DNA of 64,000 nt from Octopus vulgaris (lineage: Eukaryota): positions 19,716,001 to 19,780,000 of the forward strand of contig OX597839.1 in NCBI GenBank assembly GCA_951406725.2, read 5' to 3'. A model generated the notes under the pieces. The model was not told the DNA's origin, ran no database searches, and worked only from the letters and a program-made list of their open reading frames with translations. The translations under genes and the position numbers were made by a program. Each line of letters begins with the position of its first letter. Position 1 is the stretch's first letter. Shown one piece after another: positions 5,409-46,496 of the stretch.

Positions 5409-6500
5409 CTAGTTAGATTCCGCTCCCCTCGTTTGTAATTTATGCTGGGCTCTTGGTTCAACAGCTATTGTGAAAAGGAGGTTTAGTTCCTTTTTGAAGA
5501 CATCTGCTTTCATCTTATATAAATTTCTTAATTTTCGTGTCAGGGCATTGAAGAGCTGTGGGACTTTGAACGCTAAGCTATTGTAGTTCCTGATCCTGAA
5601 TTTAGATGGAGTGAATAGTACCTTTTGTACAAGTGCTCCAAGTTCTGGCATTTAAAACATAAAAATGTTCCTTCTCGAGCCATGCGAGGCTCATAAGGGC
5701 TGGTTTCCCGGTTTCAGTGGCGTAGAAATTTCCCACCTGGACGGGACGCCGGTCCATCGCAAGATTACTCATTTTTGCCAGCTGAGTGGACTGGAGCAAC
5801 GTGAAATGAAGTGTTTTGTTCAAGAACACAATGCATCGCCCGGTCCAGGAATCGAAACCACAACCTTACGATCATGAGTTCAACACCCTAACCACTAAGC
5901 CACGCGCCTCCACTGTATTTGTATAACATTCAATGCCGAAATTAGGTACTAGCCCTTCTAGAACTTTCCATGTGTAAATTATTACATATCTGTCGCTCCA
6001 AGAGTAAAGTCGTAGGTTTTTCAGCCTCTCCCTGTAGTTCATCTGCTGCCCTGTTTCAGTCTTTTTAGTGTAATGCCGTTGGGCCACTTGAAGCTCCACT
6101 GTTAGTTTAACACGCTGGAGTGACCAACGCTGAGAGCAGTAGTCCACCACCATCACCACCACCACTATCGCTACAACCATTCACCACAGCCACCAACGCC
6201 ACTCTGGAAAAGTGTGTGAAGTGGTTTCGCTAAAGTCTGCCTACAAGTCCTGAGGAGAATAGCTGGGAAGCCATCGGCCCCAGTTGCTGAGCTTGAGCTC
6301 ATTTCATCTATGGCAGCTGCTTCATCTGTCTCCTCAATGTTGATGCAATCGATGATTGGCGCCTTTTTTATTAGTGCTGAAATATTAAACAATTCAGTAG
6401 GGATTTTTTTTTAAAATCTGCATTTGTTCAAGCGGGGATTTGAAGACACTTTTAAATTGCTCACTAAGTACCTCACTTATACTTTCTGGGTTCGCGGTCA
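5409..6500 (-). mobile_element. degraded CR1/L2-group LINE ORF2 remnant with RT core deleted, interrupted by a SINE
   Basis: minus-strand peptides SATGADGFPAILLRTC..LAKPLHTLFQS (pre-RT), QRHYTKK..NYRERLKNLRLYS..RYVIIYTWKVLEGLVPN and NSLAFKVPQLFNAL..VFKKEL (C-terminus). Confidence 0.8.
5652..5913 (-). mobile_element. tRNA-derived SINE (family V)
   Basis: A-box TGGCTTAGTGG and B-box GTTTCGATTCC on minus; same family as 17383-18660. Confidence 0.85.
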
Positions 6501-7306
6501 GTGAGCTATTCCCTATTTTATATTGTACTGTTGTTGTAATATTGTACGTCAAATGTAAATAATGTAAATAATGTACATAATAGGCGCAAGGATGGCTGTG
6601 TGGTAAGTAGCTTGCTAACGCACATGCGCAATTAGTCAGTTGCTTCCTGTTCAGCCAGAGTGGACGCGAGTCAATCAGCTCCGTCCAATTAAAGAAAAAA
6701 GACCAAAAACGGAAAGTTGTCGAGGTAAGTGATTTTGTTTATTGTGAGTTGGGCATAATTTATTGCGTGCCAATTATTATTTCAGTAAGTTGTGTCCAAC
6801 TCTGAGATAATTTCGCCTGCTCTCGGCGGCTGCCGTTTTTGTGTTCATTGAAAAAAAAAAAAGAAAAAACATCCTCGAAATTCAATGCAGTTACTGTTAA
6901 AATTACCGTTGGCGGTAGCCAGTGCTGTGTTTGGGTTTGTTGAATTTATTCCCTTGTCAGAGTACTTCGCAAGAAAATTATAAAAATAAGCCACTATTGG
7001 ATTACCTTTCGGACCCATTTTTGTGGAGGTTGTGTTGCAGTTGCGGCGTTCCAGGTTCAACCCAGGCCGGGAGTACCGCAAGGCCAGAATATTTTTGCTG
7101 TGTTTTTTCTGTTTATTAACTTTCTTTTGAACTTCATTTAACCCCCCTTTTGTTTTTTTTCTTTATTGCGACTTTCCGTTAATTTCTTCCCTTCTGTTGT
7201 GCTTTCTCCTTTTTGTTTTTTCAAAAATCTATCAAATTTTATTTGGACTTTTGAACTTTTTTCTTCCTGCTTTTGAGTTTAATTTGAATATATTTTTAAA
7301 AAAAAC

Positions 7307-8536
7307 ATGGCAATGAAAAATAACAAAATTTTGGAGTGGGAAATCATACCACCTAAAAAGTGGTTAAAAGACCGTGAAGATAGTGTTGAGAACCTACTCC
7401 AAGGCACTTGACACCATCGCCCTATTCGAAAAGACGGCAATTGAAAAGGAGTTGGAAGAGTATTTGCCAACAATTAAATTCATTTCAGGGGTGTCAAATA
7501 TGCAACGGTGTGGTTGCTATTTGACACCCCTGAAGAGGCTTGCAAATTTGCTAGCAAACCCCTGGAGGGTAAGGAAATCTTATTCCTGCCCACGTACAAA
7601 AAAAAGAAATTGATGAAAGCTTGGATTTGCGGACTGCCACCCGACATAGAACCCGAGTGGATAGAGGAGACTATCCGCCGGGGTCTGGGTGACAGCGAAA
7701 CTAAACTCCTCAATGTAAAAGTTCTTCCTGCGGCTGCTTGGGTTGGGTCAAAAGCAATTTTGACCCTGTGGACCCAATCAGCCAATCTGGTTCTTCCAGA
7801 TTTTTTGAAAATGGCCGGGTGCAGGTACCCGGTGATGCTTGAGGCTCGCCCCCCTAAGTGTCATCGGTGCTTGGAGTCCGGCCACATAAAGAAGAACTGT
7901 CCTCGGGAACAAAATAGGATCCCGGAACAGTTAAGTAAAACCCCTCTAGAAGAGGGAACGATAACGGCCGAGAAAGCAGAGGACTCCTCAAACAGAGGCC
8001 GAAAGAGGAAGGTGAGCAACAATGGGTGCTCACCAAAGGATAATAGGGATGAGGAGAGGAAGGCGAATCTTCCAGCCACGGAGGAGACGCACCCTCCCTC
8101 AGTTGAAAAGGGAAAAAAAAAGAAAAAGAGGAAGAAAAACGGGACATTACCGGCTGTCAGTGTAGCACCGGAATGTCCCGGAACTACGTCGGTTGGGGTT
8201 GTGCCACCGACAAGAGAAGGAATACCGTTGGCGGAAACTGTGCCGCCAACGAAAGAACTGAACGTATTGGTCCTCTTCTATAGAGGAGGAGAAATTGAAA
8301 AAGTGATGGAAGAGCACTACAAGGGAGCACCTTTAGCCTTTACACAGGACCCCGAATGGCCTCCGCAGGTAGCTGTGGAGGCCGTGGCGTTCGACGTGAC
8401 GCTTGGGCTAAAGGAGCTCAATGAAGATTATAACTTGGTCCCGGGCGACGCGAACTCGGAACTTGACTACGTTCTGAGGGAGGCGTGGTTGATGGTGGAG
8501 GGCGCGGGCACAAGCTATTTCGAGGACGATATGTAA
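7307..8536 (+). CDS. L1/Tx1-type ORF1 (gag-like RNA-binding protein with CCHC zinc knuckle); two compensating frameshifts near 7368 and 7487
   Basis: ORF 7508-8536 has RRM-like KAWICGLPPDI and CHRCLESGHIKKNC (CX2CX4HX4C); ATG 7307 is in the same frame; the intervening segment reads in the 7374 frame. Confidence 0.8.
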
Positions 8537-8552
8537 TTATTGAACTGTTATT

Positions 8553-8678
8553 ATTAGTAATGGACTTAAGTCCAAAAATTGAAAAATTGTAAGAGGATTA
8601 ATACCTCGTTTTGTATTAATAATGGACTGCTAAGTCCAAAAATTGGAAAAATTGTAAGAGGTTTAATACCTCGTTTTG
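8553..8678 (+). repeat. about 63-bp tandem duplication in the element 3' UTR
   Basis: AATGGACT..AAGTCCAAAAATTG..GTAAGAGG.TTAATACCTCGTTTTGT occurs twice. Confidence 0.9.
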
Positions 8679-9309
8679 TGTTTATCTTTAAAAAGAACAA
8701 TGTTTTAGAGAAGCGAAAGTCGGCGGGCGCTTTTTGTCTTCTCCCATCCTTATCATCTTTCTTTCATTATCATTCACCTCATTAATGTCCTCGTCCAGCC
8801 CGCAAAGCTAACTTAATCTGTGTACTGCCTTTATGGCAAATGTTTTGAAATAAAGTAGCTTGCTAACCAGCCACATGGTTCCGGGTTCAGTCCCACTGCG
8901 TGGCATCTTGGGAAAGTGTCTTCTGTATAGCCCCGGGCCGACCAATGCGTTGTGAGTGGATTTGGTAGACGGAAACTGAAAGAAGCCTGTCGTATATATG
9001 TATATATATATATATATATGTGCATGTGTATGCATTTGTGTGTCTGTGTTTGTCCCACTAGCATTGCCTGACAACCGATGCTGCTGTGTTTACGTCCCCG
9101 TCACTTAGCGGTTCGGCAAAAAGAGACCGATAGAATAAGTACTAGGCTTCCAAAGAATAAGATCTGGGGTCGATTTGCTCGACTAAAGGCGGTGCTCCAG
9201 CATGGCCGCAGTTAAATGACTGAAACAAGTAAAAGAGTAAAGAGTAATTCCACATCTCTTAAATATAGAACTGTATCAAAAGCGGTTGTCAAGCAGTGGT
9301 GGGAGACAA

Positions 9310-17309: not shown

Positions 17310-18660
17310 GGTGACGGTGCCACATTCTCGGTCGCAAAATCGTAGTCTTAATTTCCGAACGGAGCGATGCATTGTGTCCTTGAGTGGAGGCGCGTGGCTA
17401 AGTGGTTAGGATCTTGAACTCATGATCATAAGATTGTGGTTTCAATACCTGGACTGGGTGATATGTTGTGTTCTTGAGCAAAACACTTCATTTCATGTTG
17501 CTTCAGTTCACTCAGATTGCAAAAGTGAGTAATCCTGCGATGGACTGGCGTCCTATCCAGGGAGGAGTAATATACCCCAGAGGAACCAGGAAACCAGCTC
17601 TATGCTCCTAATGGAGTGATGTGGGCTATAGACATACTCTACAATATTGTAATGTATAATATAGATATTGTGGAGACACATGACTTAGCGGTTAGAGTGT
17701 TGGACTCCTGATTGTGAGATTGTGGTTTCGATTCCTGGACTGGGCAGTGCATTGTGTTCTTGAGCAAGACACTTCATTTCATGTTGCTCCAGTCCACTCA
17801 GCTAATGGTTAGGATGTTGCACTCATGACTTCTAGATTGTGGTTTCGATTCCTGGACTGGGCAGTGCATTGTGTTCTTGAGCAAGACACTTCATTCCATG
17901 TTGCTCCACTCCACTCAGCTAATGGTTAGGATGTTGCACTCGTGACTTCTAGATTGTGGTTTCAATTCCTGAACTGGGTAGTACATTGTATTCTTGAGCA
18001 AGACACTTCATTTCACCTTGCTTCATTTCACCTCAGCTGGCAAAGATGGGTAATCCTGCGAAGGACTGGTGTCCCATCCAGGGAGGAGTATATACGCCAG
18101 AGGAACCAGGAAACCAGCTCTATGCTCCTTATGGAGTGATGTGGACTATAGACATACTCAGCAATATTGTAATGTATAATATAGATATGGTGGAGACACA
18201 TGGCTTAGTGGTTAGAGTGTTGGACTCCTGATTGTAAGATTGTGGTTTCGATTCCTGGACTGGGCAATGCATTGCATTCTTGAGCAAAACCCTTCATTTC
18301 CATGTTGCTCCAGTCCACTCAGCTAATGGTTAGGATGTTGCACTCATAACTTCTAGATTGTGGTTTCGATTCCTGGACCGGGTGACGCGTTCTGTTCTTG
18401 AGCAAAACCCTTCATTTCATGTTGCTCCATTCCACTCAGCTGACAATTATGAATAATCCTGTGACAGACCGACATCCCGTCAGGGTGGGGAATTTATGCG
18501 CCATGAAAAGATTTGGCACGAGCCTAAAAGGTAACTTTACTTTTGAAGGTGCACGGCTCAGTGGTTAGGGTGTTGGACTCGTGATCGTAAGACTTGGAGT
18601 TTCGATTCCTGAACCGGGTGGCGCGTTGTGTTCTTCAGCAAAACACTTCATTAGATATTT
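17310..18660 (+). repeat. tandem cluster of about 7-8 family V SINE monomers with a nested about 520-bp duplication
   Basis: GGTTAG..GATTGTGGTTTCGATTCCTGGAC repeated; spacer 17612-17668 duplicated at 18133-18188. Confidence 0.85.
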
Positions 18661-36714: not shown

Positions 36715-37291
36715 TCTTTTCTACTCAAGGCACAAGGCCCAAAATTTTGGAGGAAGGGGTCCAGTCGATTTCATGGACCCCAGTACGTAACTTAATTTAT
36801 CGACCCCCGAAAGGATGAAAGGCAAAGTAGTCCCTCGGTGGAATTTGAATTCAGAATGTAAAGACAGACGAAATACCTATTTCTTTATTACCCACAAGGG
36901 GCAAAACATAGAGGGGACAAATAATGACAGACAAACGGATTAAGTCGATTTATCGACCCCAGTGCGTAACTGGTACTTAATTTATCGACCCCGAAAGGAT
37001 GAAAGGCAAAGTAGACCTCGGTGGAATTTGAATTCAGAATGTAAAGACAGACGAAATACTTATTTCTTTACTACCCACAAGGGGCTAAACATAGAGAGGA
37101 CAAACAAGGACAGAGAAACGGATCAAGTCGATTACATCGACCCCAGTGCGTAACTGGTACTTAATTTATCGACCCCGAAAGGATGAAAGGCAAAATGACC
37201 TCGGCGGAATTTGAACTCAGAACGTAACGGCAGACGAAATACGGCTACGCATTTCGCCCGGTGTGCTAACGTTTCTGCCAGCTCGCCGCCT
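36715..37291 (-). mobile_element. family M SINE trimer (head, tail A, tail A, tail B)
   Basis: junctions at about 37059 and 36876. Confidence 0.85.
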
Positions 37292-46325: not shown

Positions 46326-46496
46326 TAGGCGCAGGAGTGGCTGTGTGGTAAGTAGCTTGCTAACCAACCACATGGTTGCGGGTTCAGTCCCACTGCGTGG
46401 CATCTTGGGCAAGTGTCTTCTGCTATAGCCCCGGGCCGACGAATGCCTTGTGAGTGGATTTGGTAGACGGAAACTGAAAGAAGCCTGTCGTATATA

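Follow-up and report, generated by a model that had tools for sequence, protein, structure and literature searches.

What kind of element encodes an ORF1 protein alone, lies at a precise position inside a SINE, and probably depends on other elements to move? The question is raised by an insert in Octopus vulgaris (GenBank assembly GCA_951406725.2, contig OX597839.1), which we analyzed in a window of 64,000 nucleotides (positions 19,716,001 to 19,780,000 of the forward strand). Unless a locus is named, the coordinates below are those of the window.

A broken ORF1 unit in a split SINE

The two halves of a SINE flank the insert, as a preliminary description of the window had proposed. The left flank (6582 to 6619), which begins with the SINE 5′ head (6582 to 6604, plus strand), matches positions 1 to 38 of an intact SINE copy at 46327 with 92% identity. 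The right flank resumes the SINE from position 24 (96%) and comprises the right target copy and the SINE remainder, with a simple-repeat middle and a tail (8853 to 9247, plus strand). Intact copies of the split SINE are present elsewhere in the window. A direct repeat, AAGTAGCTTGCTAAC, occurs at 6605 to 6619 and again at 8853 to 8867, 100% identical. The head contains TGGCTGTGTGG at 6593 to 6603 and the right part GGTTCAGTCCC at 8884 to 8894, which we take to be A- and B-box-like sequences, respectively. Compared with the genome's tRNAs (34 tRNA calls), the head scored 56, against 47 for the best of 200 shuffles, and the target thus appears to be a SINE with a tRNA-like head carrying A and B boxes. 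ARAGORN called no tRNA in the window, and Rfam gave no convincing match on the SINE (no tRNA) or on the insert, including no ribozyme. Every insertion parts the A box from the B box and would presumably deprive the SINE of promoter function. Elsewhere in the window, units of 117 bp and 183 bp repeated in tandem (17690 to 18038 and 36790 to 37242) resemble fragments of other SINE-type repeats.

The insert itself, on the plus strand, consists of a 5′ UTR of 687 bp (6620 to 7306; about 690 bp had been estimated), an ORF1 (7307 to 8536), and a 3′ UTR of 316 bp (8537 to 8852) with a 65-bp tandem duplication (8552 to 8679). An AATAAA at 8849 to 8854 overlaps the right repeat, and poly(A) is absent. 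The 5′ UTR has been exchanged between subfamilies A1, A2, and B-type; in both family A, to which the insert belongs, and its sister family B, it starts with a GCGCATGCGC-like palindrome (6620 to 6632; 6127 to 6145 in locus L031) that presumably resembles an NRF1-type site. Relative to natural intact copies, ORF1 has lost 8 nt after 7382 and 1 nt after 7485. Open frames of 412 to 414 aa occur naturally at 15 of 30 A loci, which corrects the length of about 409 aa given earlier for the repaired frame. A 17-bp inverted repeat inside ORF1 (7484 to 7534) is present in other copies too and is therefore a family feature.

A structure model built from a 7-sequence alignment is confident over residues 11 to 190, where it predicts two RRM-type units, followed by a knuckle and a disordered tail; its best Foldseek matches are tandem RRM proteins (E 3e-5). 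The CCHC zinc knuckle (7856 to 7903, plus strand) gives a weak match to PF00098 (E 0.005, below the cut-off). The RRM-like segment and CCHC knuckle first read from the sequence are thus matched by the predicted fold and this weak hit. Likewise, the reported lack of endonuclease and reverse transcriptase was borne out, as tblastn with 20 ORF2 proteins of the same genome detected no remnant of either in the insert at E 0.01. The insert has no terminal repeat beyond 15 bp, and its ORF1 homologues sit in APE-RT LINEs; an LTR retrotransposon or provirus was rejected on these grounds. In a look-up for insertion polymorphism, unique-flank contigs ended at 6566 to 6574. Contigs of two runs, presumed to be RNA, cover the element, a coverage that shows neither transcription nor its start.

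Site specificity of family A and its composite duplication

As a decayed copy, the insert belongs to a dispersed, multicopy, ORF1-only non-LTR family, which we call A. In a DNA search of the genome, 40 of 3,304 candidates were scored, and 28 of them were near full length (93 to 100%). A 23-mer from the internal/3′ part of A has 232 exact genome matches, and the SINE junction is exact in 214. Among 30 A loci, the 3′ flank reads AAATA followed across the junction by AAGTAG in all 29 shown; on the 5′ side, 27 have the SINE head, and three border on a sister element's 3′ end. When loci were picked by an internal motif alone (the first 30 by position, three of them shared with the DNA-search set), 29 entered the SINE at the identical base, and the remaining one joined it further down. 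Picking by ORF1 alone, which favored diverged copies, yielded 20 loci, 18 of which end at the site, one being broken and one joined to an ORF2. On the right side, the SINE variants are spread across the element tree and differ even between copies that are nearly identical; the A copies are therefore independent insertions. The two outcomes that would have undone the original interpretation, namely insertion of other copies at random sites and a single ORF2-bearing copy with an internal deletion, were not what we found: copies are many and site-specific, and the ORF2-less unit is itself the mobile one. The genome contains 72,684 exact empty target sites, and this abundance was the measure by which the suggested safe-harbor role of SINE heads was gauged. 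At one place (L036/L037, C8 near 21.72 Mb), two inverted A copies lie about 6.6 kb apart beside an RT fragment.

The 15-bp repeat had been described as a perfect target-site duplication (TSD). It is real, but it is composite: about 9 to 10 bp are duplicated target (left copy, 6605 to 6614, plus strand), as delimited by truncated copies and junction variants, and the last five bases, CTAAC (6615 to 6619, plus strand), are a captured piece of target carried at the element's 5′ end that follows the element lineage. Both junctions were available at 66 loci, of which 25 are informative in that right-flank bases 11 to 13 differ from the lineage's usual start. The left copy retains the lineage form in all 25 (23 scored by script and two, with an extra T, by eye). 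Furthermore, the duplication spans only 8 to 11 bp in 5′-truncated copies (L268, L275, L283, L060, L266, L123, and L130; the first five come from 11 rows, of which the remainder had a complete 5′ end, had mutated, or showed a false junction). On the tree of the autonomous element M (see below), variants that differ by one base at the junction, after position 9/10, have a scattered distribution and separate even sister copies, which led us to reject inherited TTG/GT junction variants in M; three GT cases in A share one clade. Variants at repeat positions 1 to 10 are thin and mixed, with L015 following the target and L152 and L166 not doing so. The SINEs that host older copies read AAGAAG...CTTCC, and the copies themselves begin with CTTCC. 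This match to older SINE variants indicates that the carried piece was refreshed as the SINE changed.

ORF1 lineages, the autonomous element M, and stacking at the site

In the same genome, APE-RT LINEs encode ORF1s homologous to that of A (24 to 34% identity); the A ORF1 is about 50% identical to those of two sister ORF1-only families, B and C. Its closest named protein is an uncharacterized Octopus sinensis protein (64% identical), and a protein atlas places it near CCHC and ZCCHC3-type RBD clusters (0.88 to 0.90, a lead only). In a midpoint-rooted ORF1 tree of 38 rows, with broken frames excluded, A, B, and C form one clade (100/100) apart from all autonomous ORF1s sampled. Between these families dN/dS is 0.11 to 0.26, with dS of at least 1.3, near saturation; within A, shared changes comprise 13 synonymous and 8 nonsynonymous ones (dN/dS 0.18, P 1e-4). 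As calculated on copies selected for open frames, these values point to purifying selection on the A ORF1, in answer to the dN/dS comparison suggested at the outset. Further ORF1-only lineages (D and others; L119:1191-1832, L147 upstream, L053, and L040) fall outside A/B/C in the tree. D likewise occupies the SINE site, and two D copies give a dN/dS of 0.14. A public gene model, P0002, fuses an ORF1 N terminus to an integrase-like part and is probably a chimeric prediction.

The search proposed earlier, for an autonomous element with the same 3′ end, led to one at the same site that has the same terminal hairpin. Of 34 matches to a junction pattern from which A was excluded, 30 were examined, and one had an ORF2. 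This element, M, is a 5.4-kb LINE whose full-length loci lie at the identical SINE base in 23 of 23 cases. Its ORF2 (1133 aa, intact in 5 loci) has APE, RT, and zf-RVT domains, and among solved structures human L1 ORF2p is nearest (E 1e-66). By its APE, RT, and C-terminal zinc domain, with L1 nearest, M is assigned from sequence to the L1/Tx1 group, within which it may belong to either clade. Tx1-clade ORF1s carry an RRM pair and a CCHC knuckle; this trait is matched here, together with sequence-specific insertion into a multicopy target. The tail of the SINE itself (9200 to 9247) is unlike that of M, and the SINE is therefore likely to rely on a LINE other than M.

The ORF1s of A and M are only 25 to 28% identical, and therefore A is no recent deletion of M; their DNA has almost no similarity outside the last ~30 nt. 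The earlier label of a “half” element thus holds insofar as A is an ORF1-only unit, but A is not simply half of its present partner. Two further patterns matched 831 junctions and, in an older SINE variant, another 318. We examined 60 of these: 13 had an ORF2, 30 had an ORF1 but no ORF2, and in 17 neither ORF lay within 1.5 kb. In the sampled junctions, wherever an ORF2 element at the SINE site retained its ORF1, that ORF1 was M-like, with 22 to 36% identity to that of A.

Autonomous and nonautonomous families have in common a terminal 4-bp hairpin (8826 to 8838, plus strand, in the window). Over 55 tails it is 93.2% paired with 23 two-sided changes, a result reached by 0 of 500 shuffles, compared with 15 to 55% pairing in slid controls; these counts concern four pairs only and ignore relatedness. 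Folding the 3′ tails one sequence at a time gave no significant result (z, -0.05 to -1.7), and support for the hairpin comes from the comparative count only. The hairpin is likely the recognition signal for ORF2, and the identical site and shared covarying hairpin make M the likely trans partner of A. We had also looked for a partner among 20 zf-RVT loci with a long ORF2; none ended at the SINE site, and 19 carried or adjoined an ORF1 homologue. Several other intact L1/Tx1-type families (L038-L057) end in AATAAAG and have varied or otherwise fixed 3′ flanks, and some of them form head-to-tail arrays (5.4-kb spacing on C2 near 73.05 Mb).

Autonomous, ORF1-only, and noncoding families all stack at the SINE site, in arrays such as B-A, B-B-A, C-C-C-A, B-M, and M-B-M. 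Of 11 loci with B, 9 place it upstream of A or M, far more than the roughly 2% expected from ~1,400 counted junctions and the empty sites, a rough figure since pattern stringency differs. B copies do not group by partner, and propagation of a stable B-A dimer was not supported by the trees, which are poorly resolved. At a single locus (L172/L192), A is fused to M within the M ORF1, with ORF2 downstream. In L184 and L189, an internal junction is retained ~500 bp from the end, forming a fixed tandem dimer whose short 3′ unit stands alone as L276 and L290; younger A-lineage copies lack the internal junction by deletion. This junction and the free short units suggest that A acquired its present tail from a short element, by read-through of a stack. 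Short noncoding or truncated elements of ~340 to 490 bp (L121, L153, L276, and L290) have the same tail and occupy the same SINE base.

A trans-mobilization model, its alternatives, and known systems

We propose that A is an ORF1-only family mobilized in trans, at one SINE nucleotide, by an M-clade ORF2 through target-primed reverse transcription, a reading to which we assign a probability of about 0.85. The element would be transcribed from its own 5′ UTR, starting near the captured CTAAC, and its ORF1 would coat its own RNA in cis. The partner ORF2 would bind the 3′ hairpin and nick the bottom strand opposite GGT^AAG, the terminal AAG of the RNA would pair with the freed strand for priming, and the top strand would be cut 9 to 10 nt downstream. 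Since the left repeat and the carried pentamer would together rebuild the target, further elements could stack upstream, and read-through of stacks would renew tails and 5′ tags. The nick sites, the AAG priming, and the transcript start are deduced from the junctions together with what is generally known about L1-type elements.

Against this model stand the low identity of the two ORF1s, the near lack of shared DNA between A and M, and the thin, mixed variants at repeat positions 1 to 10. In addition, the A-M joint at L172/L192 links A to an M ORF2, and in TRE5-A a heterologous ORF1 that was 25% identical was inactive (PMC3159450, accessible text), a level close to that between A and M. This compatibility constraint favors the idea that A is an internal deletion derivative, a classic half-element, of some unsampled autonomous family whose ORF1 is A-like and which would be the actual partner; only 60 of 1,149 non-A junctions were sampled. 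We nevertheless regard it as improbable, because the ORF2 elements at the site that keep an ORF1 all have the M-like one, because A, B, and C form a single ORF1-only clade with near-saturated divergence, and because an ORF2 lay downstream in just one of the 20 ORF1-picked loci, at a single A-M junction.

The B-A-M chimera, the M-B-M stack, and the excess of B upstream of A or M could instead mean that A spreads mainly in cis, as a read-through passenger with M or by template switching. That is very unlikely given that 27 of 30 A copies are flanked by nothing but SINE head and body, that none of 30 A-type 3′ ends runs into another element, and that B copies are not grouped by partner. An account without targeting, in which the ORF1 unit travels with both parts of the SINE, head and body, as one composite retroposon, would fit the 5′ pentamer inherited with the element and the ability of tandem dimers to become fixed. 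It is largely refuted, and we give it next to no weight: the near-identical copies L029, L030, L157, and L164 carry differing SINE variants, 5′-truncated copies retain the SINE head and the 8- to 11-bp duplication, and the left flank is sometimes the 3′ end of another element.

Beyond trans-mobilization by an M-clade ORF2, we tentatively suggest, at somewhat under even odds, that the A lineage may be a long-lived hyperparasite on successive SINE-targeting LINEs. It would combine a private ORF1, separate beyond synonymous saturation, with a foreign ORF2, use stacking at one SINE base to renew both its 3′ tail and its 5′ tag, and track changes of the SINE, with B preferring occupied sites and the A and B boxes parted.

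Each part of this system has precedent in HAL1, TRE5-A.2, HeT-A, or Tx1-Mar/SINEU-3, as described in the portions of the articles available to us. HAL1 is a nonautonomous L1 derivative encoding only ORF1p (PMC5753468), and A resembles it in encoding ORF1 only, in having amplified without ORF2, and in keeping its ORF1 under selection. In contrast, HAL1 belongs to the mammalian L1 lineage, with no strict target described in that text, whereas A has a tandem RRM plus CCHC ORF1 and lacks poly(A). HAL1 proper was rejected, as the A ORF1 has this architecture and no PDB sequence match to L1 ORF1p at E 10. The Dictyostelium element TRE5-A.2 has kept ORF1 and lost ORF2, is target-specific and trans-mobilized with ORF1 acting in cis, and inserts ~50 bp upstream of tRNA genes via TFIIIB (PMC3159450). 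However, its ORF1 is that of its partner, unlike that of A, and A enters the head of a SINE at one fixed base, not upstream of tRNA genes. Tx1-Mar/SINEU-3 and Xenopus Tx1L are Tx1-clade LINEs that target another transposable element and have a nonautonomous partner, and they also form tandem copies sandwiching a TSD; in contrast to the present case, their targets are DNA transposons or LTR elements and the partner is noncoding, and the available text describes neither a SINE target nor an ORF1-only partner among them (PMC4494074).

Drosophila HeT-A is Gag-only and targeted, forms head-to-tail arrays, and borrows its RT from TART/TAHRE, but it is telomeric, belongs to another clade, has a host function, and lacks an endonuclease-defined internal site (PMC5537684). 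In R2, target sequence co-transcribed in the RNA helps specific integration (cited in PMC4494074); R2 differs in its RLE endonuclease, single ORF, and rDNA target, whereas A captures a piece of 5 to 7 nt and matched no ribozyme family. A 2026 octopus repeat annotation reports 13 active L1-Tx1 families, and the words “target” and “ORF1” do not occur in its main text as available (PMC13282606). The literature searched yielded no account of an L1/Tx1 family that targets a SINE, or of the present system; such families may be described in Repbase Reports, subscription journals, or supplements, most of which lay outside its scope.

Whether ORF1 must match ORF2, and why a LINE RNA requires ORF1 in cis, can be tested naturally in this system, where selection has preserved an ORF1 that shares only about a quarter of its residues with that of the helper. 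It also warns that target sequence carried by an element can inflate the apparent length of a TSD. With more than 70,000 dispensable target copies, a base-precise APE endonuclease would qualify as a candidate tool for insertion in cephalopods. Finally, the site records co-evolution at three levels, those of the SINE target, the autonomous LINE, and the ORF1-only and noncoding riders, in strata that can be dated.
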